Shown here in pieces: positions 3,473 through 53,104 of a DNA stretch of 64,000 nt. The notes beneath the pieces were generated by a model that saw nothing but the letters and a program-made list of their open reading frames with translations, did not search any database and had not been told where the DNA came from. This DNA is from a plasmid: sequence record NZ_LC532224.1; one strand, written 5' to 3'. Position 1 is the first letter of the stretch, and each line of letters begins with the position of its first letter. Position numbers and translations under genes: made by a program.

Positions 3473-4288
3473 TCATTGTTCATGAGCCAGGCCCTGGTAT
3501 CCTGCCCAGCGTACGGCCAGCCGCTCTAAGTCCAGATCGTACACCAGCGGTGTGATTTTACGGCCTTCAAACAGCTCGCCCAGCTCAATGCCTGGCTTAA
3601 AATGAACGGTCAGGGTGGCCGGATCTATGCCCATAAGATCGGCATCAAACAGAGCATGCATTGTTGGAGTCATCAGGATGCCATTAGACGGATTGTACCG
3701 GGTTCCATGTTCAATGTGTGCCGCATCCAGGACACCGCCATTAACCCAACCGGTTACCGCACAACGGCCCGCGAAATTCTCGATGAGCAGAGCTTTAAAT
3801 TTACCCTGTGCCACGCCACTACGTTGCGTCACTACGCGCTCGCAGTGCTCACCCTGGATATCTACGTCAGGTTTCCGCTTTGGTTCGCTGGTGGCCGTCT
3901 CAGCTTGTTTTAGGGTGGAACGTGGATAGGCCAGGTTATATGCTGCGCCTGTGGTCATTTGCTCGATGACCGCAGGTGCATAACCTTCTGCTTCCAGCTT
4001 ACGATATGCAGCCCGGTAGTCTCTTTGGGTTTTCAGCGGGTATATCTTTCCGCCTTTACCATCGAAAGCGATAAACCAGAAATCGTCCGTGCCAGTTTCC
4101 AGATTTCTGCAACGTTTCAGATGCCATCCGCCTTCTCTCGCCCAGATGGTACGGTTATTTCTGGCATTCGTTTTGTCATAACCGTTCTCGTCAAGCCAGC
4201 TATCAAAGCTGGTCAGCCCCAGATCCTGAACCTCCAGAGAAGGCACTCGAATGACCTGCAAGGTATGGCGGGGTCTTGGCTCTCTCAT
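3473..4288 (-). CDS. HNH endonuclease (second copy, different N-terminal domain)
   Basis: AGRCAVTGW...AAHIEHGTRYNPSNGILMTPTMHALFDADLMGI shows the same HNH_2-type motif as the 1065-1922 gene. Confidence 0.75.
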   Translation of the reverse strand: MREPRPRHTLQVIRVPSLEVQDLGLTSFDSWLDENGYDKTNARNNRTIWAREGGWHLKRCRNLETGTDDFWFIAFDGKGGKIYPLKTQRDYRAAYRKLEAEGYAPAVIEQMTTGAAYNLAYPRSTLKQAETATSEPKRKPDVDIQGEHCERVVTQRSGVAQGKFKALLIENFAGRCAVTGWVNGGVLDAAHIEHGTRYNPSNGILMTPTMHALFDADLMGIDPATLTVHFKPGIELGELFEGRKITPLVYDLDLERLAVRWAGYQGLAHEQ

Positions 4289-6404: not shown

Positions 6405-6408
6405 ATCG

Positions 6409-6705
6409 TTACCATTTCTCCTGTCGTGCAGGTGAGTTTGATTTAAGCATTTCTTCCGTCTGCTTCCCCTCTGAAGAGGCGGTTGTCGAGGAGAAGCTGA
6501 TTTTTACGCCCAGGATAGAAAACACCTTGAATAGCCGTTCAATGCTCGCACTGGCAGGGTTGGCTTCCAGACGTGAGTATGTCTGTTGAGTGACCCCTAA
6601 CCTTTCGGACAGGTCTTTTTGCGTCAGGCCATTCGCCTTGCGAAAACCAATGAGCAAGGGACGCAACTGGTTGAGCGTGTTTAACGGGTAATCATTATTG
6701 ATCAT
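6409..6705 (-). CDS. hipB: HipB-like XRE-family HTH antitoxin
   Basis: A 98-aa protein with an HTH (LTQKDLSERLGVTQQTYSRLE) positioned directly upstream of hipA. Confidence 0.85.
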   Translation of the reverse strand: MINNDYPLNTLNQLRPLLIGFRKANGLTQKDLSERLGVTQQTYSRLEANPASASIERLFKVFSILGVKISFSSTTASSEGKQTEEMLKSNSPARQEKW

Positions 6706-7102: not shown

Positions 7103-8491
7103 TTACTTGACTGGCAAGTTTCCTGCTCTGATGGTCAATGCCTCGATGCTGTCTATATTGTTCTGAAGCCGTTCCAGTTCTGCCTTTTCAATACCGGCCC
7201 AAAGCTTTAAGTGTCGCTGATAAAGGGACCACTTGAGTGAGTGAAAACCATTCCAGGCCAACCCCATCCAGGAGGCGTAATTCGCATTGAGAATATTGCC
7301 GGTGATATACATTTTACCTGCGTTAACAGCACTGGAAGTTCCATAACCCAGGGCAAGCATCATCCGGAAGCGTGGATTTAGCCGCAACGGCATGGTATCC
7401 AGTAAGGTCTCCCCAAAAGCTCCTTTTCCCAGCGATACCTGTTTCGCCACATAGAAAACCCGCATCAAAACTTCCATTATGCTCATCGGAATACTTGTCA
7501 CGATAAACTGACGAAAGTCATACCCGTTGACATACATGTACTCTATTTGTTTGCCGAAGTTAGAACTCCCCACAGGGATCCCCTCAAGCATACGAAGTAG
7601 CCCCATAAAAGGAGCCGGTAACCCCATGCCACGGTTTCCTTTTGCTGAGGGGGCATTAACATCCGATGCCAGGTGTCCAAACATTCTGGCGATGAGCCTG
7701 AAAATATTGGTTTCGTCTGTAACGCCTTTACTGGAAGGATAAACCACGATCTGTCCATTCTGAACCACCGTACAGGTCCCGTTCAGCATATCCTTTATAC
7801 CGAAAATAATGCCCAGTACGGGATCGTGTGACAAAGCTCTTAAGCGGTGATTTGTGGGAGACAAAACGCCACCGGCCGCACCCACTAAATCGCTGCTGAT
7901 CGAACTGTCTGGTGCCCCTATAGGGAACAAATCTGAGAGTTTTGTACTCAGGTCCTCCGGCAAAATGGCATTGAAGGCTTTCTGCACCTGTTTATTGAAA
8001 ATACCATCCACTTCTGCCGTAAAGCTCACCGTAGGTTTTGGCGGGGCTCTGACGCAAAGTAAATCCAGCATGGATGCTATGAGCCCGCATCCGCAGGCAA
8101 TAGCATAATCCCAGGCGTCGAGTGCGTAGCGATCATTAAATTCTTTAATATGATTCTGGATCCGGGCATCTACAACAGCCAAGTCATCCGTGGAGAGTAT
8201 TGTGGCCAGTCCAATATCACTGCATACACGCTGGTTAGCCTCGCTATATATAGTCTTGAGACCAGTAGAATGCATGGCAGTATCTGAAGGGGTCATTTCT
8301 CGCAGATGATGTTCTTTAAGCGCCAGATGCTCCGCTTCATCAAGTTCAGTGCCGCTGATTAGCCCGGTCAACTGTGCCTTAAGGCTCTCTATATCACTGT
8401 TAATTGTCTCGTGAGCGTTCGCGATATCCTGACCACGGAGCTGAATATAACGGATGGCCCTGAACTCATCATCATAAGGAGACTGACTCAT
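7103..8491 (-). CDS. 462-aa protein of unknown function with N-terminal coiled-coil and multiple hydrophobic/amphipathic segments
   Basis: A long ORF with consistent coding character. It ends 5 nt after the upstream Gly-zipper gene. No catalytic motif recognised. Confidence 0.6.
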   Translation of the reverse strand: MSQSPYDDEFRAIRYIQLRGQDIANAHETINSDIESLKAQLTGLISGTELDEAEHLALKEHHLREMTPSDTAMHSTGLKTIYSEANQRVCSDIGLATILSTDDLAVVDARIQNHIKEFNDRYALDAWDYAIACGCGLIASMLDLLCVRAPPKPTVSFTAEVDGIFNKQVQKAFNAILPEDLSTKLSDLFPIGAPDSSISSDLVGAAGGVLSPTNHRLRALSHDPVLGIIFGIKDMLNGTCTVVQNGQIVVYPSSKGVTDETNIFRLIARMFGHLASDVNAPSAKGNRGMGLPAPFMGLLRMLEGIPVGSSNFGKQIEYMYVNGYDFRQFIVTSIPMSIMEVLMRVFYVAKQVSLGKGAFGETLLDTMPLRLNPRFRMMLALGYGTSSAVNAGKMYITGNILNANYASWMGLAWNGFHSLKWSLYQRHLKLWAGIEKAELERLQNNIDSIEALTIRAGNLPVK

Positions 8492-8495
8492 GTGT

Positions 8496-8993
8496 TTACC
8501 TCACCGCGACCAGGCTACCTTTTGGAGCTTTCTTAGTAAGCATGTCGATTGTTGCCTTGATGCCAGCAATTTCTGCCTTAAAATATTCCGCATTCGACAT
8601 CAACCTTTCCTGAACTTCGTAGAGCTTTTGGATGGCCTGACTAAGGGCGGCTGTCAGTTTCGCATTTTTTTTGTGTTTCACTATCGCGTACCCGCCAATC
8701 CCTAACACAGCTACAGGTGCGGCCAATACCGCAATGCCTGCAACCATACCGCCACCGACGATAGACCCTGCTGTAGCGAGCCCGGAGGTTATGCCTGCTG
8801 CTGACACTCCCGTTGTACCAAGCGTATAGAGAGCACCGAAGGAAGCCGCTGCGCCTACGCCTGACCCCGCCAAAGCTGCTGCGCCCTCAGTAATACCCGG
8901 GAACTTATTTTCAAGCGCCTGAAGAGCACTTGTAACTTCATCCATTGCCTTCTTGCGAATTTTTTCGAGCTCTTCAGTTTCGGTAGCGTCCAT
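8496..8993 (-). CDS. glycine-zipper membrane protein (start probably MDATETEEL at 8993; ORF extends to 9065)
   Basis: The central segment AAALAGSGVGAAASFGALYTLGTTGVSAAGITSGLATAGSIVGGGMVAGIAVLAAPVAVLGIGGYAIV is a Gly/Ala zipper transmembrane region flanked by amphipathic helices. Confidence 0.6.
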   Translation of the reverse strand: MDATETEELEKIRKKAMDEVTSALQALENKFPGITEGAAALAGSGVGAAASFGALYTLGTTGVSAAGITSGLATAGSIVGGGMVAGIAVLAAPVAVLGIGGYAIVKHKKNAKLTAALSQAIQKLYEVQERLMSNAEYFKAEIAGIKATIDMLTKKAPKGSLVAVR

Positions 8994-9195
8994 TACAGGC
9001 CTCGTATTCATAACTTGCTGTGTGATAGGTGAAAAAGAGCACCATAAAAGTGATGAAGAAATCATGACTTACTATTGTGGCACTTTCGAGTTCATGTTTG
9101 TCAGTTTCAATGCTGTTGCTGTTAGTAAGGGCAGACGCCATATCGGGCAGACCCAAAATAACTATCGTGCCAGCGTCATTTTGGAACTGACTTTG

Positions 9196-10942: not shown

Positions 10943-11823
10943 TGCTTCCGGTTTTTACTTCGCACAACCCGGCAGGTATCCGGTCGCCCGGGCGTCCTTT
11001 GCGGTCTTGTTCGCCCTTCGCCTGAATTACGTCAAATCCCTTTCACTACCCGGCCGCAGGGTGACACCTCCCCTTTTCTCCGGAAGCGAAAGAGGAAGAA
11101 CAGTTTAACAGCCCGGATCCTCAATAATTTTCGCGTAACGGACTAAATAACCGGTTTATGCAGCTTCTGATAACCACAGACCGCGATAGAATAAAACGTC
11201 TGGTGAGGAACCGGAGTGTTATGTAAGCGGGGGGTTTAACTGGGTATCTGTGTAGTCCTATTTAGCCAGATATCCCGAATAAAAACCTCAACGATTAGGT
11301 AAACGAAATGGATGGATTCTGGTCGATGTTCTGTTTGTTTGTCGTGGTAGTTTCACTGCATAAAGCCCTTTCTGTAGCAGCAGCACGAGCAGACGCAGCA
11401 AAATTAAATATGCTTCTCAGAATGAGAAAGTTTAAAAAGTAGCTTTCAAGACATCTGAGAATTCTTTTAAATCCTCAGAGGAAGTTATATGTTTAGGCTA
11501 TTTGCAAACTAAGGTTGGAATTCCATCATTCTAGCCTTAGATCTTTGATCAAGTGAAGTTGCTCACTTGGTTGGATTTTACCGTTTCCTGACGGCTTTTC
11601 AGAAGCGAGGGCTGGTTGGAATGCCTTCCAGCTAGAAGTCTTGCAGATGCTCTCCGGGCATTAACTCATTGTCGAATCTGCACCAGTATCACTAGGTTGT
11701 TGAGCGGGCGATTAGCTTTTTCACTGAGCCGCTGTACACTCGACTGCTTCAAGAAGCACTACTTACCATTTGCCTGCCGTAAGGTCTGTTCTTAGCTGGA
11801 TTTTTTTGGGAGGATACGCAGTC

Positions 11824-12810
11824 ATGACAACTCAATCCAGCTCAATACAATACGCTTACGCGCTAGACGGCGAGGGCACCCTCACGCACATTGGCGCTGC
11901 CCTGCGCTCACATACTTACACCTGCCCAGGTTGTAAGAGCCCCCTGACCCCGGTAATGGGCGAGTTCAACGCTAAGCACTTTCGCCATTCGGAAGAATGC
12001 TGTGCCCTTGAAACCTATCTTCACAAGTGCGGCAAAGAAGCATTCTTCTATCGCTACCAACAAGCTCTCAGCCGTGAAATGCCTATTAGCCTTGAGCTGG
12101 AGCGCCGGGTTGCCTGTAATGGTTCTCGTTTAGCCTTGGTTAGAGACGAAGCACGTCAGTGCGTAAAATCCGTGCCTGCACGCTACAACTTGACTCAATT
12201 TTTCGATCAGGCAGAGCTGGAAAAACACGATAAGGTCACAGGGCTGCGACCAGACGTGATGTTGTATGATACGACTGGCGAAAGGCGTTGCTACGTAGAG
12301 ATTTGTGTCACACACCCCTGCTCTCAAGACAAGATCGAAGCCGGTATCCCGATTCTTGAGTTTAAGGTCCAATCTGCCTCTGATATTCAGATGTTGCTTA
12401 CCGGGGCCTACTCGATCAAGGAGAAGATCCTGAGAGTATTCAACTGGCTTCCCCCGTTTCAATCTGTGGACACCTGTAGCGGCGTCTGCTCAGTAGGTAA
12501 CGTGGATATGTCTGTCTGGAGTTTAAGTGGTTCCGGCCGACTCAACGAACAAACGATGCCGCTCGCTGAAGTGGATTTAACAATCAATTCTGACGTGAAC
12601 ACATGGCCTAGATCGTTAGGGGCCGCTGAGCTGGCTGATAACTTACGAGCTTTTATCCGTCACGCCGATCCTCATTCACTATTTCCCAACTGCATTATGT
12701 GCGAGCAAGCAGGCCGATGGGAGGATGGCTATCTGCAATGTCACAGTAAGGCAAAGATCGTTCCCTACACCGAGGCCCGTCAGTGCGCCAATTACAAGGT
12801 TAAGGCATGA
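11824..12810 (+). CDS. CoiA-like nuclease family protein (ORF from 11770; likely start MTTQSS at 11824)
   Basis: The N-terminal zinc-finger signature YTCPGCKSPL...HFRHSEE matches the C-x2-C...HFxH element of competence protein CoiA-like proteins. Its stop overlaps the helicase start (ATGA). Confidence 0.65.
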   Translation: MTTQSSSIQYAYALDGEGTLTHIGAALRSHTYTCPGCKSPLTPVMGEFNAKHFRHSEECCALETYLHKCGKEAFFYRYQQALSREMPISLELERRVACNGSRLALVRDEARQCVKSVPARYNLTQFFDQAELEKHDKVTGLRPDVMLYDTTGERRCYVEICVTHPCSQDKIEAGIPILEFKVQSASDIQMLLTGAYSIKEKILRVFNWLPPFQSVDTCSGVCSVGNVDMSVWSLSGSGRLNEQTMPLAEVDLTINSDVNTWPRSLGAAELADNLRAFIRHADPHSLFPNCIMCEQAGRWEDGYLQCHSKAKIVPYTEARQCANYKVKA

Positions 12811-14471
12811 CCAAAAGACTGACTTGGGAGCAGAAAAGTATTGTCAGCCATGACACCGGACATGCGTTGGTAAAAGCCGTACCTGGTAGCGGGAAAACAA
12901 CCACACTTGTAAAGCGCGTTGAGCGGCTGGTCAAGACGGGAACTGATCCTCGCTCCATTCTGATCCTGATGTACAACAAGTCGGCGCAGGTGAGCTTCAC
13001 GGAGAACTTGAAGACGGCACTGATGTCGAGCGTGATTCCAGAAATCCGCACGTTCCACAGCTTGGCCTTAAAGATTGTTGGTTACGGAGAACGCCAACAG
13101 ATAATCAAGAAGAAAGACCTCATTACTCCAAGCGACTACCGCTATGAGCAACTGGTAAAGCAAGCCTACCGCTATGGCTTTGACCATGAGGCGAATTATA
13201 TTGACCCCAATGAAATTGAAAACTTCGAGCTGTTTATTGCTCGCTGCCGGGCGGCGGCCGTAACTCCTGTTGATGCTGCCAATGATCCAACGTTCAGCAA
13301 CATCAAACGGGAGTTTATTCACGCCTATGGCCGCTATTGTGAGCTGCTGGAGGAAAACAGTCTGCGAACCTTTGATGACTGTTTGATTGAGGCTGTCGCA
13401 CTGTTGCGTAATGACAGCAGCCTTGGTGCCCACTTCAAGCACATCATTGTTGATGAATATCAGGACGTTAACCTGATACAGCATGACATGACCCGCTTGC
13501 TATCTAAGTCGGATACGTCGGTTATGGCTGTTGGTGATGTTAACCAGTGTATTTATGAGTGGCGTGGTGCTCGACCAGACTTTATCGGCGGACTGTTTGA
13601 AAGGCACTACCCGAATACGAAGGTGTTTCAACTGTCATGCACGTTCAGATTTGGCCATGAGCTTTCCTTGATGGCTAACTCGGTAATTCGGCGCAACTCT
13701 ACAAAGCTGACCAAGCTTTGTGTCAGTCATCCTAGCACCCCCAAAACAGAGGTCAGATTGCACTTTGATAACTGCCTATCCAAGGTGCTATCAAACCTCT
13801 CGGTGAGCAGTGGAACACAAGCCATATTGTCCCGCACTAAGGCGAACCTTGCTGAGGCGGAAATTGCTTTACGCCTGTGTGGGCTACCTTATCGCTACCT
13901 CAATGGTTCAAGCGCATTACACACCCGCACCGAAATCGGGATACTGGTAGTTGGCGTCTTGCTGTCTGTGTACGGCGATCTGCGGCTACTGGAAAACCAT
14001 CCCAACAAACAAGCGATTGTTTACGGCTTTCTGAAGGAGGCTGGTTTTAGATGGCAGAAAGGGCAATTCAAAGCGGCGCTCAGTGGATTGATGGCTCCGC
14101 ACGCCGACCTATGGTCTGCTCTAGGTCAGTTATTCGAGGGCGCACAATACCAAAAAGATCGGCTGGGCAGGCTCGCCACTATCTGCCAGAAAGACGGAGA
14201 GGAAACGCCTGCTATCGATGTGTTACGACGCCTGAGTATGGAGGGTTTCATTGATAGTGTTGGCTCTGAGGGTGTAACTCGCACTGGATCGAACGACCAG
14301 CAACGAGGGGTCGTGAGGATCGGGGAGCTACTTGACTCCAGTAAGATCGATTCCCGCACGTTTTTAAACCTTATCTTGAATCCAGGCGAGGCTGCTACTG
14401 ACTGCGATCCCTTCATCCTTTCCACACTGCATGGTTCCAAGGGGCTGGAGTGGGATAACGTAATACTGATC
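12807..14471 (+). pseudogene. UvrD/Rep-like SF1 helicase, N-terminal 555 codons, interrupted by transposon insertion
   Basis: Walker A AVPGSGKTTTL, motif II IIVDEYQDVN and ...HGSKGLEWDNVILI are present. The reading frame runs into the transposon terminal repeat at 14472 and terminates inside the insertion sequence. Confidence 0.85.
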
Positions 14472-14493
14472 GGGGTCGTCTCAGAAAACGGAA

Positions 14494-15820
14494 TCTATGG
14501 TCACTCCCGTTTTTGCAACACCGATTTTGACGACAAGTTGGCTTGCTTGAATCTATCCGGCGTCTGAATGGGATTTTATTCCCGCGCCTTGATGAGTTCC
14601 GCGCCTGATGAACCTCCAGAAAATATACGGCTTCAATGAGCCTTTCCGTTTTACAGGTTCCTCAACAGGCCGGTGGGCCGTTAGTATCATCAATATCAGT
14701 ATTCGCAAAACCAGATCAGTAATTCTTTAAACCGGTGTATTTCTGCCGTTATGCTACATAAGTTTGCTGTCGTGCCGTTAGGGCCCAGGCTATTCTGGCC
14801 AGCTTGTTTGCCAGAGCACAAGTGACGACAAAGTTGCTTTTCCGGCACAGTAAATCCCTGACCCAATCGGCCAATTTGCCAGACTGGTGTTCCAGTTTTT
14901 GTATGAATACCCTGGCACATTGAACCAACAAAGTTCGGATCTTTTTATTACCTCGCTTACTAATTCCCAGCAATGTCGTCCTACCTCCCGTGCTGTACTG
15001 CCGAGGTACAAGCCCTGTTGCCGCCGCAAAGTCACGGCTGCTGGCGTACTGCTTCCCGTCGCCAATCTCAGTTGAAATAGTACTCGCTGTCAGTGTTCCG
15101 ACGCAGGGAATGCTCAGCAAGCGCTGTCCAACCTCATCTTCGTCCAACTTTCGTTTCAACTGGGATTCCAAATCTTTAATCTGCTCAACAAGATAGTGAT
15201 AATGCTGTTGTAATTTCAGCAATAACTGGCTGAGGTAAAGAGGCAAACTATTATCCTCAAGAATGGTACTCAGTCGGCTAATAACGGCAGCTCCTCGGGG
15301 AACGCTAATGCCAAATTCCAGCAGAAAAGCATGCATTTGATTGGTTGTTTTTACCTTATCCTGAACCAGGGATTCACGGACACGATGCAGAGCCCGCATT
15401 GCCTGCTGAGATTCCGTTCTGGGCTGCACAAAACGCATAGACGGACGCGATGCAGCTTCACAAATAGCTTCGGCGTCGACAAAGTCGTTTTTATTGCTTT
15501 TAACGAACGGGCGGACAAATTGTGGTGATATCAGCTTTGGGGAATGCCCCAACTCTTCCAACTTGCGTGCCATAAAGTGAGAACCGCCACAGGCTTCCAT
15601 TGCGATGGTTGTAGCGGGGCATGTCGCCAAAAATTCGATCAACTTTGGCCGGGTAAATTTTTTACGGTAAACAGCCTTCCCGCGACGATCCTGGCAATGA
15701 ATATGGAAAGAGTTTTTACCCAGATCGATACCAATGAGCGCAATGTTTTCCATGATAGTTCTCCGAATGAAAGCCTGTCCTCAGCATAGTACCGGGAAGG
15801 AGGGAGTGACCATCTCATTA
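14494..15820 (-). mobile_element. IS4321/IS5075-like IS110-family insertion sequence, copy 1 (1327 bp), inserted in the transposon terminal repeat
   Basis: It sits between the 22-nt outer and 16-nt inner parts of the 38-bp repeat. Its ends are tctatggtcactccc... and ...gggagtgaccatctcatta. Confidence 0.85.
14749..15753 (-). CDS. IS110-family (IS1111 group) transposase
   Basis: The 334-aa protein begins MENIALIGIDLGKNSFH... and has the DEDD-type transposase layout. It is 100% identical to the protein encoded at 22067-23071. Confidence 0.9.
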   Translation of the reverse strand: MENIALIGIDLGKNSFHIHCQDRRGKAVYRKKFTRPKLIEFLATCPATTIAMEACGGSHFMARKLEELGHSPKLISPQFVRPFVKSNKNDFVDAEAICEAASRPSMRFVQPRTESQQAMRALHRVRESLVQDKVKTTNQMHAFLLEFGISVPRGAAVISRLSTILEDNSLPLYLSQLLLKLQQHYHYLVEQIKDLESQLKRKLDEDEVGQRLLSIPCVGTLTASTISTEIGDGKQYASSRDFAAATGLVPRQYSTGGRTTLLGISKRGNKKIRTLLVQCARVFIQKLEHQSGKLADWVRDLLCRKSNFVVTCALANKLARIAWALTARQQTYVA

Positions 15821-15831
15821 AATAAAGCACG

Positions 15832-16389
15832 CTAAGCGTGCGTGGAGGCTGGCACCCAGCGGTACAGCGTCGGAATGGACACGCCGAGGTTCTTGGCCAC
15901 GTCCTTGGGCGGCACCCCGCTGGCCAGCAGCTTCTTGGCCGACTCGATCTTGCTGTCGGTCATCTTCGGCTTGCGGCCGCCTTTGCGGCCGAGCTGCTTG
16001 GCGACTTCCAGCCCGGCGCGGGTGCGCTCGACGGTCAGCTCGCGCTCCATTTCGGCAAGGCTCGCCATGACGTGGAAGAAGAACCGCCCGGATGGTGTGC
16101 CGGTGTCGATGGAGTCGGTGAGGCTCCTGAACTGGACACCGTGCTTGTGCAGATCGCCGACCAGATCGACCAGTTGCTTGACCGACCGGCCCAGCCGGTC
16201 GAGCTTCCAGACGACCAAAGTATCGCCTTCGCGCAGCATTTCGAGCGTCTTGGCCAAGCCAGGCCGGTCTGCCCGCGTGCCACTCACCTTGTCCTCGAAG
16301 ACCTTTTTACATCCGGCCTTGCTCAAGGCTTCGCGTTGCAGCTCCAGGTTCTGATCCTGCGTCGAGACGCGCGCATAGCCAATCAACAT
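15832..16389 (-). CDS. tnpR: serine recombinase / resolvase TnpR
   Basis: The N-terminus MLIGYARVSTQDQNLELQ contains the catalytic Ser, and a C-terminal HTH is present. The stop falls inside the transposon terminal repeat. Confidence 0.9.
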   Translation of the reverse strand: MLIGYARVSTQDQNLELQREALSKAGCKKVFEDKVSGTRADRPGLAKTLEMLREGDTLVVWKLDRLGRSVKQLVDLVGDLHKHGVQFRSLTDSIDTGTPSGRFFFHVMASLAEMERELTVERTRAGLEVAKQLGRKGGRKPKMTDSKIESAKKLLASGVPPKDVAKNLGVSIPTLYRWVPASTHA

Positions 16390-16754
16390 GGCTTGTCTCG
16401 CGCCCGGTCGATGCGTTCCTGCATCGCCTGCATCACTTCTTCGTGGGTGTACGATCTGGCGTTGGCGTCGGTGGCTTGCCGCAGGGCTTCCTCAACCTCG
16501 CGCGTCATCCGCTCGTAATCCTCCGGCCACAGCGCTTGCTCCATGCGCAGCGACGCCTGACTCAGCAGGTGCAGCAGGCTGAACAGCCGCATGTCGTTGG
16601 TGGCGACGATGCGCTCCCGAATCTGCTCCTGAATAGCTTCGCTAGCCCGATGCGCTTGTGGTGTGGCAGTCCCCTCGTAGTCAGCGGGGAATTCCGCTTC
16701 CTCGGCAATCCTTGCCCAGGCGCTGGCCAGCGCCTCGATGGTTGACGTGCTCAT
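16383..16754 (-). CDS. hypothetical protein (probable start MSTSTIEAL)
   Basis: Its ORF overlaps the tnpR start and is ATGA-coupled to the upstream membrane gene. Confidence 0.4.
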   Translation of the reverse strand: MSTSTIEALASAWARIAEEAEFPADYEGTATPQAHRASEAIQEQIRERIVATNDMRLFSLLHLLSQASLRMEQALWPEDYERMTREVEEALRQATDANARSYTHEEVMQAMQERIDRARDKPC

Positions 16755-17263
16755 TTCCGCCGCTCCTGTGCTCTTTGGCGAATCAACCGGCCAAGGGGCC
16801 TCGACGCGAAAACCAGCAGCATCACGCCTATCGGATACCAGGTCGAGAAGACCACCAAGGCATCGAAGGCTGGCCGTCCGGTGTTGGTAGGCAGTACGGC
16901 GGTCACAGCCATCAACCCGCCGACCGTCCAGATGATGCGCCACACGTAGGGCATCACGCGGGGCACGTAGCCGTCATCGAAAGCGGTCTGGTAGTAGCGG
17001 CGCAGGCCGCGCTCGGCAAGCGCCTGGCGCTGCCGCTCCGACAGCGCATCCGTCCGGCCATACCAGCGCCGGAATGGTGGACAGCGCAGCAGCAAAGGGG
17101 TGAAGAGGATCATCACCGCCACGATCGCGACACCCCACGCCATGACGGCGCCGGCATCGGGCCGCTTGGCGTTCTCGATCACGGGCGCGAAGACGCCCGG
17201 AGCACCGATCATCCAGAACAGCGCAATGTGCTGATGGAAGGAGAGCTTCATTTGCTCATCCAC
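16751..17263 (-). CDS. integral membrane protein (4 predicted TM helices)
   Basis: Hydrophobic segments give the membrane call. The C-terminus is basic. Confidence 0.45.
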   Translation of the reverse strand: MDEQMKLSFHQHIALFWMIGAPGVFAPVIENAKRPDAGAVMAWGVAIVAVMILFTPLLLRCPPFRRWYGRTDALSERQRQALAERGLRRYYQTAFDDGYVPRVMPYVWRIIWTVGGLMAVTAVLPTNTGRPAFDALVVFSTWYPIGVMLLVFASRPLGRLIRQRAQERRK

Positions 17264-17574
17264 TTGCGCAGCAGGCGCTTTTTCAGGGAGGCGCGTTCTT
17301 GCGGGTTGCGTCCCTTGTGATTGGCGATGCGATCCGCCGTGGCGGCCTGGCGCTTGACGGGCCAGTAGGAGCGGCCATCCTTGCCCATCGACCAGACGCT
17401 GCTGGCCTGGTTTTCCAGCAGGGGCAGATGGGCGCTCAGGGCTTCGGGCGACGCGCTGGTCAGCGCCGTGCGCTCACGGGTGCGCCAGCGCTGATGCCAG
17501 AGCTTCTTGTTCTCGCGCTCGCTGCCGCAGGTCGTGTGCCCGACGATGGGTGTTTTGCGGCGGCTGCGGCTCAT
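17248..17574 (-). CDS. small basic hypothetical protein
   Basis: ORF overlapping the downstream gene; first gene of a three-gene set. Confidence 0.4.
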   Translation of the reverse strand: MSRSRRKTPIVGHTTCGSERENKKLWHQRWRTRERTALTSASPEALSAHLPLLENQASSVWSMGKDGRSYWPVKRQAATADRIANHKGRNPQERASLKKRLLRKWMSK

Positions 17575-17828
17575 AACGTAGTGGTCTCCAAGAACATTCA
17601 GGACTGATCCCAGGCGTCGATGGTCAAGACCTGATCGGCAGGACAGGCGGCTACGCGGTCGGGAACTGGATGGTGTTCAGTCTCATGCCGACCCCATTCG
17701 ATTGATCGCGTCGCTTGCGGCACGCTGCGACGCAAGGAGGTTTGCGACCTGGTTTAGCAGCCGTGTCCGCTGCATGTCTGTTACCTATCTCCCCGACCGC
17801 TCATTGGACCAACTCCAGAGATTGGGCT

Positions 17829-18185
17829 CTATCGCTCAGCCAATACGAAACCGGCATTGGCTGATGCCACAACCGAGACTAACACAAATGGCTCGGTACC
17901 TGTATTTCGCGCCCCGTGCACTTGGCCCGGTCTTGCCACGGCTATCTCACCTTCCCTGAGGGCACGAACAATCCCATTGCCCTGAAAGTAATCAGCCATT
18001 CCCGACAAAACAGTCCACGTGTCTTGGCCGTGAGGATGAATGTGAGCCGCAATTTCCTGCCCGGGATGGACATGCCAAACCACGATAATTGAGTCTCGGG
18101 TTTCAAGCACAACGGAACGAATAGGCTCGCCTTCGGACGGCTGAACATACTCGGCTACAGAAAATATTCTCGATTCAACAGTCAT
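17829..18185 (-). CDS. cupin-domain protein (start MTVESRIF with strong Shine-Dalgarno; long ORF to 18404 is spurious overlap)
   Basis: HVHPGQEIAAHIHPHGQ...VHGARN matches the two-His cupin motifs. Confidence 0.6.
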   Translation of the reverse strand: MTVESRIFSVAEYVQPSEGEPIRSVVLETRDSIIVVWHVHPGQEIAAHIHPHGQDTWTVLSGMADYFQGNGIVRALREGEIAVARPGQVHGARNTGTEPFVLVSVVASANAGFVLAER

Positions 18186-18576
18186 CGGAGATCCCTCTTT
18201 CACAGTTGTCGTTACGGTCTTCATCGTCGGCATCCTGACGCACGGCGGGCAATTGCTGGAGCAACGCCGGCAGCCATTCCTGTACCGTCTCCCACACCAC
18301 ATCGAGGTTGATGTCGAAATAGCCGTGAGCCATGCGATTACGCATATTGCGCATGCTGCGCCACGGCACGTCGGCATGCGCCTGGGTGAACTCGACGTAG
18401 CCATCCATCACCTTTGTGGCCGCCTCGCCGATGACGATCAGGCTCATGATGACGGCCTGCTGGGTGCGCTTGTCGGCCAAGAAGTCGTCCTTGGCCATCC
18501 CTTCCACGAAGCTGCGCGCATCGGTTGCGGCCTGCTGAATGTGGTCGAGGTAATCGGGCAGGCGGTTCTCGCTCAT
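18175..18576 (-). CDS. hepT: HepT-like (DUF86/HEPN) toxin
   Basis: RNRMAHGY fits the R-x4-6-H-x-Y HEPN motif. It is coupled to the upstream MNT gene. Confidence 0.8.
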   Translation of the reverse strand: MSENRLPDYLDHIQQAATDARSFVEGMAKDDFLADKRTQQAVIMSLIVIGEAATKVMDGYVEFTQAHADVPWRSMRNMRNRMAHGYFDINLDVVWETVQEWLPALLQQLPAVRQDADDEDRNDNCERGISDDC

Positions 18577-18869
18577 ATCGGTTGCGCCTCCGCGAGCACC
18601 TTGGCCCGGAACTTCGGCGGCAGGTCGCCGGGAGTCAGCAGATCGACGTCAACGCCGAGCAGCGATTTCAGTTCTTCTTCCAAATCGCCCAAGTCCAACA
18701 ACGTGGCACCGGGCAGCGCATCGACCAACAGGTCGAGGTCGCTGCCATCCCGGTCGGTGCCATGCAGCACCGAGCCGAAGACGCGCGGGTTCGCGGCGCG
18801 AAAGCGGCCTACCGCTTCACGCACTGCGCTTCGCTTCATGTCAAGCACAACAGACGGTCGCATGCGCAT
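18573..18869 (-). CDS. mnt: MNT-type nucleotidyltransferase antitoxin
   Basis: GSVLHGTDRDGSDLDLLV fits the GS-x(n)-DxD minimal nucleotidyltransferase motif. Confidence 0.8.
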   Translation of the reverse strand: MRMRPSVVLDMKRSAVREAVGRFRAANPRVFGSVLHGTDRDGSDLDLLVDALPGATLLDLGDLEEELKSLLGVDVDLLTPGDLPPKFRAKVLAEAQPI

Positions 18870-19021
18870 CCTTTCTTATCGAAACTCGTTGAGATGATAT
18901 GCAATCAAGAATAGAATTTCAAGAACTATTTTCGAGAATCGCAATGCCTTGATTCCCGTGCCGCGCCGGTTGCCTTGGCGGGCTTGTCACAAACCTACGT
19001 TTTCAAGAAGAAGGAAACCGC

Positions 19022-21988
19022 ATGCCCCGCCGTTCGATCCTCTCCGCCGCCGAGCGCGAAAGCCTGCTGGCGTTGCCGGACACCAAGGATGAGTTGATCC
19101 GTCACTACACGTTCAGCGAAAGCGACCTCTCCATCATCCGGCAGCGGCGCGGCCCGGCCAATCGGCTGGGCTTCGCGGTGCAGCTCTGCTACCTGCGCTT
19201 TCCCGGCGTCATCCTTGGCGCTGATGAGCCACCGTTCCCGCCATTGCTGAGACTGGTCGCCAACCAGCTCAAGGTCGGCATCGAAAGCTGGGACGAGTAC
19301 GGGCAGCGTGAGCAGACCCGACGCGAGCACCTGGTCGAGCTGCAAACGGTGTTCGGCTTCCAGCCGTTCACGATTGGCCACTACCGGCAGGCTGTCCAGT
19401 TGCTGACCGAGCTGGCCATGCAAACCGACAAGGGCATCGTGCTGGCCAGAGCCTTGATCGAGCACCTGCGGCGGCAGTCGGTCATTGTGCCCGCCCTCAA
19501 CGCCGTCGAGCGGGCGAGCGCCGAAGCGATTACCCGCGCCAACCGGCGTCTCTACGACGCCTTGGCTGAGCCGCTGACGGACGTGCATCGCCGTCGCCTC
19601 GACGATCTGCTCAAGCGCCGCGACAACGGCAAGACGACGTGGCTGGCCTGGCTGCGGCAATCCCCGGTCAAACCGAACTCGCGGCACATGCTGGAACACA
19701 TCGAACGCCTCAAGGCGTGGCAGGCGCTCGACCTGCCCTCCGGCATCGAGCGGCTGGTTCACCAGAACCGGCTGCTCAAGATCGCCCGCGAGGGCGGCCA
19801 GATGACGCCCGCCGACCTGGCGAAGTTCGAGCCGCAGCGGCGTTACGCGACCCTGGTGGCGCTCGCCATCGAGGGCATGGCCACCGTCACCGACGAAATC
19901 ATCGACCTGCATGACCGCATCCTGGGCAAGCTGTTCAATGCCGCCAAGAACAAGCATCAGCAGCAGTTCCAGGCATCCGGCAAGGCGATCAATGCCAAGG
20001 TGCGGCTGTTCGGGCGCATCGGCCAGGCGCTGATCGAGGCCAAGCAAGCGGGCCGCGATCCGTTCGCCGCCATCGAGGCCGTCATGTCCTGGGATGCTTT
20101 CGCCGAGAGCGTCACCGAAGCGCAGCGGCTCGCGCAACCCGAGGACTTCGATTTCCTGCACCGCATCGGCGAGAGCTACGCCACGCTGCGCCGCTACGCG
20201 CCGGAATTTCTCGACGTGCTCAAGTTGCGGGCCGCGCCCGCCGCCAAGGACGTACTCGACGCCATCGAGGTGCTGCGCAGCATGAACAGCGACAACGCCC
20301 GCAAGGTGCCCACCGACGCGCCGACCGAGTTCATCAAGCCGCGCTGGCAGAAGCTGGTGATGACCGACACCGGCATCGACCGGCGCTACTACGAACTGTG
20401 CGCGCTGTCGGAGCTGAAGAACGCGCTGCGCTCCGGCGACATCTGGGTGCAAGGCTCGCGCCAGTTCAAGGACTTCGAGGACTACCTGGTGCCGCCCGCG
20501 AAATTCGCCAGCCTCAAGCAGGCCAGCGAATTGCCGCTGGCCGTGGCCACCGATTGCGACCAGTACCTGCATGACCGGCTGACGCTGCTGGAAACGCAGC
20601 TCGCCACCGTCAACCGCATGGCGCTGGCCAACGAGCTGCCGGACGCCATCATCACGGAGTCGGGCCTGAAGATCACGCCGCTCGATGCGGCGGTGCCCGA
20701 TACCGCACAGGCCCTGATCGACCAGACGGCGATGATCCTACCGCACGTCAAGATCACCGAATTGCTGCTGGAGGTAGACGAATGGACGGGCTTCACCCGG
20801 CACTTCGCCCACCTGAAGTCAGGCGACCTGGCCAAGGACAAAAACCTGTTGCTGACCACGATCCTCGCCGACGCGATCAACCTGGGCCTGACCAAGATGG
20901 CGGAATCGTGCCCCGGCACGACCTACGCCAAGCTGGCCTGGCTGCAAGCCTGGCACATCCGCGACGAAACCTACGGGGCGGCACTGGCCGAGCTGGTCAA
21001 CGCGCAGTTCCGACATCCCTTCGCCGGGCATTGGGGCGACGGCACCACGTCATCGTCGGACGGCCAGAACTTCCGCACCGGCAGCAAGGCCGAGAGCACC
21101 GGCCACATCAATCCGAAATACGGCAGCAGCCCAGGGCGGACGTTCTACACCCATATCTCCGACCAGTACGCGCCGTTCCACACCAAGGTCGTGAACGTCG
21201 GCGTGCGCGACTCGACCTACGTGCTCGACGGCCTGCTGTATCACGAATCCGACCTGCGGATCGAGGAGCACTACACCGACACGGCAGGGTTCACGGACCA
21301 CGTCTTCGCGTTGATGCACCTGCTGGGCTTCCGCTTCGCCCCGCGCATTCGTGACCTGGGCGACACCAAGCTCTACATCCCGAAGGGCGATGCCACCTAC
21401 GAGGCGTTGAAACCGATGATCGGCGGCACGCTCAACATCAAGCACGTCCGCGCCCATTGGGATGAAATCCTGCGGATGGCCACCTCGATCAAGCAGGGCA
21501 CGGCGACGGCCTCGCTGATGCTCAGGAAGCTTGGCAGCTACCCGCGCCAGAACGGCCTGGCCGTCGCCCTGCGTGAGCTGGGACGCATCGAGCGCACACT
21601 GTTCATCCTGGACTGGCTGCAAAGCGTCGAGCTGCGCCGCCGCGTGCATGCCGGGCTGAACAAAGGCGAGGCGCGCAACGCGCTGGCCCGCGCCGTGTTC
21701 TTCAACCGCCTGGGGGAAATCCGCGACCGCAGCTTCGAGCAGCAGCGCTACCGGGCCAGCGGCCTCAACCTGGTGACGGCGGCCATCGTGCTATGGAACA
21801 CGGTCTATCTGGAGCGGGCCGCGAACGCCTTGCGTGGCCACGGTCAAGCCGTCGATGACGGCCTGTTGCAGTACCTGTCGCCGCTCGGCTGGGAGCACAT
21901 CAACCTGACCGGCGATTACCTCTGGCGCAGCAGCGCCAAGATCGGCGCGGGCAAGTTCAGGCCGCTACGGCCGCTGCAACCGGCTTAG
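19022..21988 (+). CDS. tnpA: Tn3-family transposase TnpA (Tn21/Tn1721-like)
   Basis: The 988-aa protein begins [20 protein letters not shown]..., which I recall as near-collinear with Tn21 TnpA. Its stop lies in the inner terminal repeat. Confidence 0.95.
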
Positions 21989-21999
21989 CGTGCTTTATT

Positions 22000-23325
22000 T
22001 AATGAGATGGTCACTCCCTCCTTCCCGGTACTATGCTGAGGACAGGCTTTCATTCGGAGAACTATCATGGAAAACATTGCGCTCATTGGTATCGATCTGG
22101 GTAAAAACTCTTTCCATATTCATTGCCAGGATCGTCGCGGGAAGGCTGTTTACCGTAAAAAATTTACCCGGCCAAAGTTGATCGAATTTTTGGCGACATG
22201 CCCCGCTACAACCATCGCAATGGAAGCCTGTGGCGGTTCTCACTTTATGGCACGCAAGTTGGAAGAGTTGGGGCATTCCCCAAAGCTGATATCACCACAA
22301 TTTGTCCGCCCGTTCGTTAAAAGCAATAAAAACGACTTTGTCGACGCCGAAGCTATTTGTGAAGCTGCATCGCGTCCGTCTATGCGTTTTGTGCAGCCCA
22401 GAACGGAATCTCAGCAGGCAATGCGGGCTCTGCATCGTGTCCGTGAATCCCTGGTTCAGGATAAGGTAAAAACAACCAATCAAATGCATGCTTTTCTGCT
22501 GGAATTTGGCATTAGCGTTCCCCGAGGAGCTGCCGTTATTAGCCGACTGAGTACCATTCTTGAGGATAATAGTTTGCCTCTTTACCTCAGCCAGTTATTG
22601 CTGAAATTACAACAGCATTATCACTATCTTGTTGAGCAGATTAAAGATTTGGAATCCCAGTTGAAACGAAAGTTGGACGAAGATGAGGTTGGACAGCGCT
22701 TGCTGAGCATTCCCTGCGTCGGAACACTGACAGCGAGTACTATTTCAACTGAGATTGGCGACGGGAAGCAGTACGCCAGCAGCCGTGACTTTGCGGCGGC
22801 AACAGGGCTTGTACCTCGGCAGTACAGCACGGGAGGTAGGACGACATTGCTGGGAATTAGTAAGCGAGGTAATAAAAAGATCCGAACTTTGTTGGTTCAA
22901 TGTGCCAGGGTATTCATACAAAAACTGGAACACCAGTCTGGCAAATTGGCCGATTGGGTCAGGGATTTACTGTGCCGGAAAAGCAACTTTGTCGTCACTT
23001 GTGCTCTGGCAAACAAGCTGGCCAGAATAGCCTGGGCCCTAACGGCACGACAGCAAACTTATGTAGCATAACGGCAGAAATACACCGGTTTAAAGAATTA
23101 CTGATCTGGTTTTGCGAATACTGATATTGATGATACTAACGGCCCACCGGCCTGTTGAGGAACCTGTAAAACGGAAAGGCTCATTGAAGCCGTATATTTT
23201 CTGGAGGTTCATCAGGCGCGGAACTCATCAAGGCGCGGGAATAAAATCCCATTCAGACGCCGGATAGATTCAAGCAAGCCAACTTGTCGTCAAAATCGGT
23301 GTTGCAAAAACGGGAGTGACCATAG
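22000..23325 (+). mobile_element. IS4321/IS5075-like IS110-family insertion sequence, copy 2, in the opposite transposon terminal repeat, inverted relative to copy 1
   Basis: Same end sequences and the same insertion point in the terminal repeat as copy 1. Confidence 0.85.
22067..23071 (+). CDS. IS110-family transposase (identical to 14749-15753)
   Basis: Identical 334-aa product. Confidence 0.9.
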   Translation: MENIALIGIDLGKNSFHIHCQDRRGKAVYRKKFTRPKLIEFLATCPATTIAMEACGGSHFMARKLEELGHSPKLISPQFVRPFVKSNKNDFVDAEAICEAASRPSMRFVQPRTESQQAMRALHRVRESLVQDKVKTTNQMHAFLLEFGISVPRGAAVISRLSTILEDNSLPLYLSQLLLKLQQHYHYLVEQIKDLESQLKRKLDEDEVGQRLLSIPCVGTLTASTISTEIGDGKQYASSRDFAAATGLVPRQYSTGGRTTLLGISKRGNKKIRTLLVQCARVFIQKLEHQSGKLADWVRDLLCRKSNFVVTCALANKLARIAWALTARQQTYVA

Positions 23326-23347
23326 ATTCCGTTTTCTGAGACGACCC

Positions 23348-23728
23348 CTGATCGGGCTGAATGAGCAGGAATTTCCTGGCGGCAAACCCGATGATGTTTA
23401 CAGCGTTCGCACATCGATGAACACCCCTCCGGCCGAAGAGGAAATCGAGGAGGAACGTCGGCTGTTTTATGTCGGTATCACTCGCACAAAACAGCAGCTA
23501 AATCTGGTGGTCCCTCTTGATGAAGGGCTTGCGCGGTGGCTCAAAAACCGCTGGGATAGCACCCCGAAGAAGTCACCGATAGCTACTCGCTTCGTCTATG
23601 AGGCTGGCTGGACTGCTTGTGCGGTTACCAGTGATGCGATCTATAACAGCACGGTAGAGAAACAGAAGGCTGACTTCAGCAAGTTTCACCAATGGTATCT
23701 AAGAGATCTTCAGCGGCTAAAAGTCTAG
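23348..23728 (+). pseudogene. UvrD-like helicase C-terminal remainder (motif VI RRLFYVGITRTK) displaced by transposon insertion
   Basis: The frame continues from ...WDNVILI (14471) across the TGATC duplication to GLNEQEFPGGKPDDVY...RRLFYVGITRTKQQL. Removing 14472-23347 plus one TGATC copy restores one ~690-aa helicase ORF. Confidence 0.8.
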
Positions 23729-53097: not shown

Positions 53098-53104
53098 TGA
53101 AAAA

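Follow-up and report, generated by a model that had tools for sequence, protein, structure and literature searches.

A CoiA-type nuclease gene paired with a UvrD-like helicase gene on IncHI2 plasmids is a candidate two-gene defence module

Among the described systems that are closest to the locus analysed here, Gabija consists of two genes, for a nuclease and a UvrD-like SF1 helicase, with the nuclease gene first, and is found in defence islands; its nuclease, GajA, is an OLD-family ATPase-TOPRIM enzyme. Hachiman likewise comprises two genes, without a methyltransferase, for a PD-(D/E)xK-type nuclease (HamA, DUF1837) and an SF2 DEAD/DEAH helicase (HamB), and in Nhi, nuclease and SF1 helicase activities are joined for defence. 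Outside these systems, the PD-(D/E)XK nuclease CoiA, which has a C2H2 zinc finger at its N-terminus, resolves D-loops in synergy with a helicase (bioRxiv 10.1101/2024.02.06.579203); CoiA is confined to Bacillota, its place in other bacteria being taken by YraN/ComM (bioRxiv 10.1101/2024.02.06.579203). The N-terminal domain of CoiA is also represented in PD-lambda-4, a validated two-gene anti-phage system that consists of an NTPase and a CoiA_N-domain protein (Vassallo et al. 2022; PMC9519451).

The window, a 64,000-nucleotide stretch of plasmid DNA (NZ_LC532224.1), contains a gene for a predicted nuclease with a CoiA-type zinc finger (gene A) that is directly followed by a gene for a UvrD-like helicase (gene B). 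We consider the chances to be slightly better than even that positions 11824-14471 and 23354-23728 represent a two-gene operon that is self-contained, moves horizontally and most likely serves to defend the host or the plasmid against invading DNA (phages or other mobile elements); genomic association points to the pair as a candidate in this respect. The original prediction of a candidate nuclease-helicase defence module gains support from the search of defence profiles, the recurrence of the pair and the reconstruction of gene B, all of which came out in its favour. The features of the operon, all on the plus strand, are:

11496..11823, plus strand: non-coding leader 5' of the pair, delimited by the similarity boundary in pO111_1-type plasmids
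11824..12810, plus strand: gene A, 328 aa, predicted nuclease in three parts
11902-12000, plus strand: CoiA_N-type C2H2 zinc finger of A, about residues 27-59
12004-12366, plus strand: PD-(D/E)xK core of A, about residues 61-181
12460-12807, plus strand: Cys-rich C-terminal domain of A, about residues 213-328
12807..12810, plus strand: overlap of the A stop and the B start (ATGA), read directly in the sequence
12807..14471, plus strand: 5' part of gene B, codons 1-555, with the Q motif and motifs I-V
23354..23728, plus strand: 3' part of gene B, codons 556-679 and stop, with motif VI (RRLFYVGITRTK)

The open reading frame of gene A spans 11770-12810 when read from a TTG; all orthologues share the ATG start at 11824, and the start of the pair at 11450 that had been proposed is not borne out. 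The ATGA in which the stop of A and the start of B overlap, also part of that proposal, is present. This 4-nt overlap is found in 14 of the 17 orthologous loci (the other three overlaps are 1, 16 and 47 nt long, the last of these following a frameshift in A), and loci L033 and L034 likewise have an ATGA junction, suggesting that A and B are translationally coupled. Upstream of A, the similarity of E. coli pO111_1-type plasmids to the window begins at query position 497, which corresponds to about 11496 of the window; the leader thus delimited travels with the pair and presumably holds its promoter. A promoter and terminator scan gave no convincing promoter-like site on the plus strand upstream of the ATG of A, and no RNA family was detected when the operon and the sequence upstream of it were scanned against Rfam. 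The only genes conserved across loci are A and B; a third component was rejected, as neither the convergent 84-aa ORF that follows B (23731-23985) nor the upstream ORFs are conserved elsewhere.

The CoiA-type zinc element that had been read from the sequence of A is indeed present, as C34-P-G-C37 ... H52-F-R-H55, and the four cysteine and histidine residues are conserved among the family members. The Pfam CoiA_N profile (PF25164) scores the A protein of the window at 24.0 bits, slightly below the gathering score of 26.3, and matches 25 of the 25 close and 60 of the 62 distant members of the family (best E 7.7e-14). The fold of A is that of the PD-(D/E)xK nucleases, with the catalytic Asp in beta-2 and the Glu in beta-3, both acidic residues being invariant. 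The CoiA nuclease domain PF06054 had no match among 25 members at E <= 1 or among 62 at E <= 0.01; the term 'CoiA-like' describes A only in its zinc finger at the N-terminus and its overall PD-(D/E)xK architecture. A sequence search against all PDB chains produced chance-level matches only (E >= 0.3), a Foldseek search against the PDB gave no significant match, and the few low-TM matches that Foldseek returned from viral structures are too weak to be informative, one of them being to a phage 'competence protein' (E 4e-5). The nuclease superfamily of A comprises 3,259 clusters at 50% identity, almost all of them uncharacterised. Relatives of A with 21-35% identity occur as solo genes in all seven contexts examined, and three of these contexts look like housekeeping ones, namely beside a gene of the isocitrate dehydrogenase family (L024), between AIRS-domain and tsaE genes (L028) and near a mutS-like gene (L031); thus, the fold of A is not specific to defence.

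In the window, gene B is split by a transposon, the features of which are:

14467..14471, no strand: left copy of the target-site duplication TGATC
14472..23348, no strand: Tn21-family transposon, 8,877 bp
15832-16389, minus strand: tnpR of the transposon
19022-21988, plus strand: tnpA of the transposon
23349..23353, no strand: right copy of the target-site duplication TGATC

The interruption of gene B had been recognised correctly, with its end placed at 23347; the insertion actually covers 14472-23348. The terminal 60 bp of the transposon are perfect inverted repeats beginning GGGGTCGTCTCAGAAAACGG. An IS4321/IS5075-type element lies within each 38-bp terminal repeat, the inner halves of the repeats being located at 15821-15837 and 21986-22002, and the cargo includes a nucleotidyltransferase/DUF86 pair. 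An identical insertion is annotated in NZ_CP040888.1.

The proposed reconstruction, with the transposon and one TGATC deleted, gives a continuous helicase: joining 14471 to 23354 restores an uninterrupted ORF of 2,040 nt and 679 aa, the product of which is 100% identical (tblastn) to that of the intact gene of plasmid R478 (NC_005211.1, 83.8-87.2 kb), annotated as WP_000166877.1. In its intact form, B belongs to the SF1A UvrD-like superfamily, with the Q motif, motifs I, Ia and II-VI and the 1A/1B/2A/2B fold all present, and shows highly significant similarity to the Pfam families UvrD-helicase (E 5.6e-45) and UvrD_C (1.1e-19). Domains 1A and 1B are encoded by the 5' part of the gene, as is the helical 2B-like insert; the C-terminal helical extension (residues 612-676) is conserved (W..WDS.P..ATRFVYE.G). 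The SF1/UvrD motifs singled out in the original prediction are in place, GSGKTT and DEYQD in B as it stands and VGITRTK after repair. All SF1 motifs are invariant in the 17 orthologues, and the motif residues likewise in 38 homologues; in the 3' part the invariant residues are R590, R591, Y594, V595, T598 and R599, and the C-terminal motif is invariant as well. The AlphaFold model of intact B has a pLDDT of 86.4 and a pTM of 0.87, with confident helices at 612-676.

The best matches of B among solved structures and NCBIfam models are UvrD, PcrA and Rep, which is what could be expected of an ordinary housekeeping operon for a DNA-repair helicase (UvrD, Rep, PcrA or helicase IV) that is carried by a plasmid by chance. 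However, the scores of B against the NCBIfam models for UvrD, Rep, PcrA and helicase IV (172.9, 168.3, 159.8 and 143.8 bits) are far below the curated cut-offs (911, 951, 965 and 543); the pair occurs patchily and on mobile elements; and B, unlike housekeeping UvrD, comes with a nuclease partner of its own. Such an operon, the outcome that would have counted against the original prediction, is effectively refuted, and we regard it as extremely improbable.

Neither A nor B was placed in a described system by the profiles of PADLOC 2.0.0 (2023), a library that includes models for PD-lambda-4: B showed generic UvrD matches only, and A only a weak match to the N-terminal part of DruB. We found no description of the pair in the published literature on CoiA, UvrD, antiphage systems and the RefSeq accessions of the pair. 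As far as such comparisons go, the A+B pair matches no described system, which agrees with the original remark that a CoiA-like partner is not known from a described system.

The resemblance to Gabija lies in the gene order and the helicase. The best PADLOC matches of B are GajB models (up to 4.5e-52), a generic SF1A signal, with the DRT helicase model RTasHel (6e-51) and PcrA/Rep (1e-50) alongside. Solved GajB chains align with B only at residues 207-291 (motif II-III; E ~5e-11, compared to 1e-34 for UvrD) and are about 495 aa long, in contrast to the 679 aa of B with its full helical insert and C-terminal extension. The nuclease A is a zinc-finger PD-(D/E)xK protein, unlike GajA, for which no PADLOC match was obtained in A at E <= 0.1. 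Hachiman shares with the pair the nuclease type, the two-gene layout and the lack of a methyltransferase but employs an SF2 helicase whereas B belongs to SF1, and the HamA and HamB models of PADLOC matched neither A nor B. Nhi is a single polypeptide whereas the pair consists of two separate, co-evolving genes; no Nhi model is among the 25 best PADLOC matches of B. The similarity to DruB of type I Druantia extends over the zinc finger and the first helix, where residues 13-85 of A align with profile positions 4-79 at E 6e-4, and 16 of the 62 family members show it, but it comprises only about 73 of the 504 profile positions; the partners DruA, DruC, DruD and DruE are all missing beside the pair. 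At E <= 0.1, the PADLOC matches of A were limited to two DruB models.

A and CoiA have in common the N-terminal C2H2 zinc finger (CoiA_N), the PD-(D/E)xK core, in which Asp and Glu are conserved, and, after it, a long C-terminal region. CoiA works with the RadA helicase whereas the operon of A itself encodes the partner, an SF1 UvrD-like helicase; furthermore, A differs from CoiA in its Cys-rich C-terminal domain and the lack of a PF06054 match, and is found on mobile elements of Gammaproteobacteria with no link to competence genes whereas CoiA is a nuclease of the competence regulon of Bacillota (bioRxiv 10.1101/2024.02.06.579203). In PD-lambda-4, as in the pair, an NTPase is combined with a protein that has a CoiA-type zinc-finger domain at its start; the NTPase of PD-lambda-4 is a STAND/AAA-like ATPase whereas B is an SF1 helicase. 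By analogy, this combination of an NTPase and a CoiA_N-domain protein lends the defence interpretation a precedent.

On whether such pairs recur as conserved neighbours, the answer is clear: A and B are adjacent in all 22 loci examined, down to 29% identity for A and 34% for B, and the stop of A and the start of B nearly always overlap. In the search anchored on A, B is immediately downstream in 17 of 17 loci (A identity 48-98%) from Aeromonas, Pseudomonas, Marinobacter, Motilimonas, Zhongshania, Paraneptunicella and Fluctibacter, and among helicase-anchored loci from other genera the pair is present in five of five. Homologues of B at 48, 43, 36 and 34% identity each have a CoiA_N nuclease directly upstream; the next helicase outward (32% identity, 762 aa) is a UvrD in a housekeeping context without the nuclease. 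Pairing by chance is excluded, and A and B are obligate neighbours across deep divergence. Both genes evolve under purifying selection, with dN/dS of 0.10-0.31 for A and for B, and diverge in step (r = 0.98 for the pairwise distances over 153 pairs).

The hosts include many marine and enteric bacteria, within the Gammaproteobacteria and their plasmids, and the pair is distributed patchily among plasmids, transposons and islands. The protein-level matches on plasmids comprise 787 records with at least 95% identity, 3 with 80-90% and 7 with less than 60%; because the identities cluster in this way, IncHI1 plasmids lack the pair, and a core function in the IncH backbone was rejected on this ground. 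A tblastn search against 50,697 phage genomes detected no homologue of the pair and a scan of IMG/VR no viral relative, so a phage origin was rejected as well.

Defence genes are encoded within about 6 kb of the pair in L004, L007, L015, L016/17, L033, L034, L035 and the window; the sample consists of about 16 distinct contexts, and these are raw presences. The neighbours include a type I restriction-modification system and Zorya (L033), an integrase and a type II restriction-modification system of the MvaI/BcnI kind (L035), a methyltransferase and an HNH protein (L034), a class II pAgo (6.9e-287) and TniQ (L015), an ORC/CDC6-like protein, a calcineurin-like phosphoesterase and a Dam methyltransferase (L016/17), a HamB-like (Hachiman-like) helicase (L004) and SoFic (L007), along with the mobile-element markers TraC, TraY, resolvase, transposase, split comM and UmuC. 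In the window, a match to BnzB of Bunzi (3e-53) lies 3.3 kb upstream of the pair, hipBA is nearby and a ter/TerY-P cluster is downstream; the surroundings thus fit the defence island that had been suggested, with mobile elements and known defence genes on the flanks. In Aeromonas, a HamB-like gene adjoins the pair as a separate system.

The same contexts bear on the possibility that the pair assists mobile elements in recombination or repair, in which case a structure-specific nuclease and a dedicated helicase would process D-loops, forks and branched intermediates, in parallel with CoiA/RadA and YraN/ComM of natural transformation, and would aid recombination, repair and resolution of plasmids and islands rather than attack foreign DNA. 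Mechanistically, this fits equally well, CoiA being a helicase-aided recombination enzyme (bioRxiv 10.1101/2024.02.06.579203) with the same domain order as A; some of the solo relatives of A reside in housekeeping contexts, and UmuC genes flank two of the loci. Nevertheless, none of the 62 family members matches PF06054, CoiA is restricted to Bacillota with YraN/ComM in other bacteria (bioRxiv 10.1101/2024.02.06.579203), and the patchy, mobile pair is found among restriction-modification, Zorya and pAgo genes, not competence or recombination genes; moreover, the IncHI1 relatives lack the pair, and it is often disrupted with conjugative typing retained. We consider such a role unlikely.

In situ, the B ORF runs into the end of the transposon and stops at 14567, yielding a truncated 586-aa product that is annotated as WP_031942310.1 in other plasmids; the insertion deprives this copy of B of motif VI and the C-terminal extension. 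Judging by its sequence, the pair in this window is inactivated, either dead or crippled. The same disruption affects roughly a quarter of the pair-bearing IncHI2 plasmids, which are still typed as conjugative, so the pair is dispensable to the plasmid; extrapolation from a spread sample gives roughly 190 other plasmids with an intact A and a broken B. Frequent disruption is neutral with regard to defence, yet shows that there is no strong selection to keep the pair.

These plasmids are particularly relevant to a Hachiman-type mechanism of abortive infection or addiction, whereby B would restrain a toxic, non-specific A and free it upon infection or DNA damage, resulting in cell death; on a plasmid, the pair could double as a post-segregational killer. 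The tight stoichiometric coupling of A and B, the two-gene layout of nuclease and helicase without a methyltransferase and the toxin-antitoxin genes (hipBA) nearby are all compatible with this mechanism, for which the well-established HamA/HamB of Hachiman provide an analogy. However, intact A persists together with B lacking motif VI and the C-terminal extension in the window and, by extrapolation, on the other disrupted plasmids, and solo relatives of A are common. A lethal A without its partner is not expected on these plasmids because they persist with a broken B, unless the 586-aa B still restrains it. Abortive infection of this type appears distinctly improbable to us.

Under the preferred interpretation, defence against invading DNA, A and B would be produced together through translational coupling and would act as a complex. 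B is predicted to be a UvrD/PcrA/Rep-type SF1A motor that translocates along DNA and unwinds it at the expense of ATP, and A a metal-dependent PD-(D/E)xK endonuclease in which the C2H2 zinc finger would bind DNA and the Cys-rich C-terminal domain probably binds metal; A would cleave single-stranded or branched DNA exposed by the motor. There is no linked methyltransferase, and therefore invaders would have to be told apart by the structure or the ends of their DNA, or by a cue of infection. We infer the formation of the A-B complex, the polarity of the helicase, the substrate of the nuclease, the target and the phenotype. A more specific scenario, to which we assign somewhat less than even chances, is an unnamed form of anti-phage or anti-plasmid immunity, in which the dedicated UvrD-like motor loads a CoiA-type structure-specific nuclease, the four-cysteine C-terminal domain of which might hold zinc or an Fe-S cluster, onto intermediates that arise when the invader replicates or recombines; under this scenario, a recombination-resolvase module would have been recruited for immunity on more than 800 sequenced IncHI2 multidrug-resistance plasmids.

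If the pair is protective against phages or plasmids, it would add a distinct chemistry, that of a CoiA-type zinc-finger PD-(D/E)xK enzyme, to the helicase-nuclease class of immunity, and would link immunity to the machinery that resolves recombination intermediates. The intact pair is present on hundreds of IncHI2 resistance plasmids from Enterobacter, Salmonella, E. coli and Klebsiella, whereas in a large IncHI2 sub-lineage, the window included, it is broken at the same site. Should the pair prove to be a novel immune system, IncHI2 plasmids could shape the range of phages and plasmids that their hosts accept, and a comparison of the intact and broken plasmids offers phage therapy and plasmid ecology a ready natural experiment.

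The CoiA-like nuclease gene (gene A) and the downstream UvrD-like helicase gene (gene B) lie in an IncHI2 conjugative plasmid backbone, in the following arrangement:

11824-12810, + strand, gene A, conserved ATG to stop (328 aa)
12807-12810, + strand, ATGA overlap of the gene A stop and the gene B ATG, seen in the sequence
12807-14471, + strand, 5' part of gene B, its reading frame running into the transposon terminal repeat (GGGGTCGTCTCAGAAAACGG...)
14472-23348, transposon insertion, 8,877 bp, perfect terminal inverted repeats
14467-14471 and 23349-23353, TGATC duplication flanking the transposon

The stop/start overlap is as described in the original prediction, which also held that deletion of 14472-23347 and one TGATC would restore the helicase; the repair works, with the right boundary one base further, at 23348. 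Fusion of 14471 to 23354 yields a 2,040-nt ORF encoding a continuous 679-aa helicase, and A and repaired B are 100% identical (tblastn) to the intact genes of Serratia marcescens R478 (NC_005211.1), annotated as WP_000211823.1 and WP_000166877.1, respectively. The entire 11000-14471 stretch is 100% identical in R478 and in hundreds of plasmids from Enterobacter, Salmonella, Escherichia and Klebsiella. In the window, the transposon breaks B after codon 555, removing motif VI and the C-terminal extension and leaving a 586-aa truncated protein; this copy is predicted to be non-functional as a pair.

Gene B is covered by the Pfam domains UvrD-helicase (5.6e-45) and UvrD_C (1.1e-19), the nearest solved structures are UvrD, PcrA and Rep, and the predicted structure is confident (pLDDT 86.4, pTM 0.87), and in it residues ~375-525 form a helical insert and residues 612-676 a conserved helical extension at the C-terminus. 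The full set of SF1/UvrD motifs recognized previously, with motif VI recovered upon repair, is borne out: neither the Q motif nor any of motifs I-VI varies among 17 orthologues or among 38 homologues with as little as 33% identity. B is no housekeeping orthologue, as it scores far under every NCBIfam equivalog cut-off; nor is the pair a housekeeping operon, and a housekeeping role is effectively excluded.

The sole Pfam domain found in A is the CoiA N-terminal zinc finger (CoiA_N; 24.0 bits versus a gathering score of 26.3), which is matched by 25 of 25 close and 60 of 62 distant homologues (best E 7.7e-14); the Pfam CoiA nuclease domain PF06054 is matched neither by A nor by its searched homologues. 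The proposed CoiA likeness thus extends to the zinc finger and the overall PD-(D/E)xK architecture and not to the Pfam nuclease domain. Across 62 family members (22-52% identity to A), H55, E63, H67, K71, C113, E133, D144, E159, K170, E179, C222, C290, C293, C306 and C321 are invariant, and C34, C37, H52 and C60 nearly so. Judging from sequence and secondary structure, A would comprise three elements: a C2H2 zinc site (C34, C37, H52, H55); a PD-(D/E)xK active site built from one face of the first helix (E63, H67, K71), two consecutive strands (D144, E159) and the helix that comes after them (K170); and, within the C-terminal domain, a further putative metal site (C290-x2-C293 ... C306 ... C321).

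Scanning one genome per species, we found 19 loci; in the 17 where the A homologue is full-length (48-98% identity), a B homologue (53-98%) always lies directly downstream; the hosts are Aeromonas, Pseudomonas, Marinobacter, Motilimonas, Zhongshania, Paraneptunicella, Fluctibacter, a Pseudohongiellaceae MAG and one mis-binned MAG. The pair thus recurs as conserved neighbours, a point that the original prediction had left to be checked, and does so also in a helicase-anchored search, where B homologues with 48, 43, 36 and 34% identity each have a CoiA_N nuclease directly upstream (40, 37, 29 and 33% identical to A, respectively). The next most distant helicase, a 762-aa protein with 32% identity, has no nuclease neighbour; the genes around it encode pyruvate dehydrogenase and ABC transporters. 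Stop and start overlap as ATGA in 14 of the 17 loci, the other three having overlaps of 1, 16 or 47 nt, and clustering of every flanking ORF revealed no third conserved gene. The dN/dS ratios are 0.10-0.31 for A and B alike. The pairwise distances of A and B are tightly correlated (r = 0.98, 153 pairs); therefore, the two genes are co-inherited without partner exchange.

Comparison with the defence profiles of PADLOC 2.0.0, as suggested at the outset, produced only generic UvrD-type matches for B (GajB, 4.5e-52; DRT-associated helicase, 6e-51) and, for A, a sole weak match to DruB over the first ~75 positions (E 6e-4), which is present in 16 of the 62 family members; A did not match any PADLOC model of PD-lambda-4B. 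No description of a CoiA-like nuclease paired with UvrD was found in the literature searched, and among validated defence proteins we found a CoiA-type domain only in PD-lambda-4B (Vassallo et al. 2022; PMC9519451), the partner of which is a STAND-like ATPase. CoiA itself is described as a D-loop resolvase of PD-(D/E)XK type that carries a C2H2 finger at its N-terminus, is partnered by the RadA helicase and is confined to Bacillota (bioRxiv 10.1101/2024.02.06.579203). A recombination or repair accessory following this CoiA/RadA pattern is the main rival interpretation, and we consider it unlikely. We favour, with modest confidence, the reading that the two genes form a mobile defence module, its SF1A motor (B) laying DNA bare for the zinc-finger PD-(D/E)xK nuclease (A). 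The anatomy, folds, catalytic residues, linkage, selection and context of the pair are established, and we infer complex formation, substrates, trigger and phenotype. The likeness to Gabija noted originally holds in outline, as a proposed nuclease-helicase logic, and not as family membership; the pair would resemble both Gabija and Hachiman in broad working, yet it is a member of neither family.

Around the paired loci, markers of mobile elements (TraC, TraY, resolvase, TniQ, integrases, transposase, split comM, UmuC) occur together with known defence genes; the neighbours at individual loci (L numbers) include:

L033, type I restriction-modification and Zorya
L035, MvaI/BcnI restriction-modification
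L034, methyltransferase and HNH gene
L015, class II pAgo (6.9e-287)
L016/17 (sister contigs, same slot), ORC/CDC6-like protein, calcineurin-like phosphoesterase, Dam methyltransferase
L004, HamB-like helicase
L007, SoFic

Between L015 and L016/L017 (Zhongshania and Pseudohongiellaceae contigs), the contents of an island slot ~1-6 kb upstream of the pair differ, whereas a 405-aa upstream gene and the pair itself are constant and a TniQ gene is close by; it looks as if a Tn7-like element had exchanged its cargo. Phage homologues were absent from 50,697 phage genomes, and none were confirmed in IMG/VR. The surroundings in the window include:

5079-6705, - strand, hipA (441 aa) and hipB-like HTH (98 aa) toxin-antitoxin pair
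7103-8491, - strand, 462-aa protein with a PADLOC match to BnzB of Bunzi (E 3e-53)
8496-9065, - strand, 189-aa membrane protein preceding the BnzB-like gene
~24100-24360, - strand, remnant of a type I restriction-modification M subunit (HsdM), just downstream of the pair
24000-48900, tellurite-resistance (ter) cluster: TerD-family genes, three VWA (TerY-type) genes, PP2C phosphatase, kinase

The 189-aa protein has no BnzA match at E <= 1e-6. The two genes at 7103-9065, which lie 3.3 kb away from the pair, probably make up a Bunzi-like defence system. In gene content the ter cluster corresponds to the TerY-P triad, and the pair therefore sits between two defence-associated plasmid blocks. The HsdM remnant, annotated in sister plasmids as a frameshifted N-terminal fragment, may be a vestige of an older defence gene at the site. 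Beyond hipBA, in the upstream direction, there are two genes for HNH endonucleases (1065-1922 and 3473-4288), and the low G+C of 53000-60000 (0.34-0.40 versus ~0.50 in the rest of the window) suggests a separately acquired block.

The transposon belongs to the Tn21 family:

15832-16389, tnpR
19022-21988, tnpA
18175-18869, - strand, nucleotidyltransferase (98 aa) and DUF86/HEPN protein (133 aa) cargo, 4-nt overlap
14749-15753 and 22067-23071, IS4321/IS5075-type transposase ORFs
14472-14493 and 23327-23348, outer halves of the terminal repeats
15821-15837 and 21986-22002, inner halves of the terminal repeats

The cargo is a typical MNT-HEPN toxin-antitoxin pair, adjoined by a cupin gene. Each 38-bp terminal repeat is split by an IS4321/IS5075-type element of the IS110 family; occupation of the two ends presumably prevents the transposon from moving.

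The DNA of the pair is present in 820 plasmid records. Among 60 evenly spaced records in which its state was assessed, 14 are split at precisely the insertion site of the window and three retain only a 3' remnant. In other plasmids, ISSen4 and ISEc33, the two elements placed within the coding DNA of the pair (IS positions are approximate), interrupt the genes, and IS256, IS903B and IS100 break up the wider 11000-14471 stretch, of which the upstream leader is a part. An IS3-family element is also among those interrupting this 3.5-kb stretch in the IncHI2 matches (H1-H11, H46, H89). The occurrence of different IS elements in different plasmids, along with the Tn21-family insertion, points to repeated independent hits on 11000-14471. 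Protein-level plasmid matches show at least 95% identity in 787 records, 80-90% in three and < 60% in seven, a distribution which means that IncHI1 plasmids lack the pair. The pair is accessory, outside the replication/transfer core. A Hachiman-style design, in which the helicase would hold back a toxic nuclease, is quite improbable given the many plasmids with an intact nuclease next to a truncated helicase and the abundance of solo nuclease relatives.

At E <= 1e-3, a profile search with A retrieved 3,259 clusters (50% identity), 319 of them at E <= 1e-30; most are full-length proteins of 320-360 aa. In the Paludibacteraceae MAG loci L020 and L021, Bacteroidota nuclease relatives of 534-544 aa without a helicase neighbour have ~130 additional residues at the N-terminus and differ in their C-terminal part; one adjoins a 585-aa protein that, going only by its sequence, we take as DUF262/GmrSD-like. 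Seven full-length A relatives (21-35% identity) and two longer Bacteroidota proteins are encoded by solo genes, some in defence or mobile settings (GmrSD and HEPN; Bpu10I restriction-modification; transposases) and others among housekeeping genes. The helicase-linked clade thus forms one branch within a large, uncharacterised nuclease superfamily.
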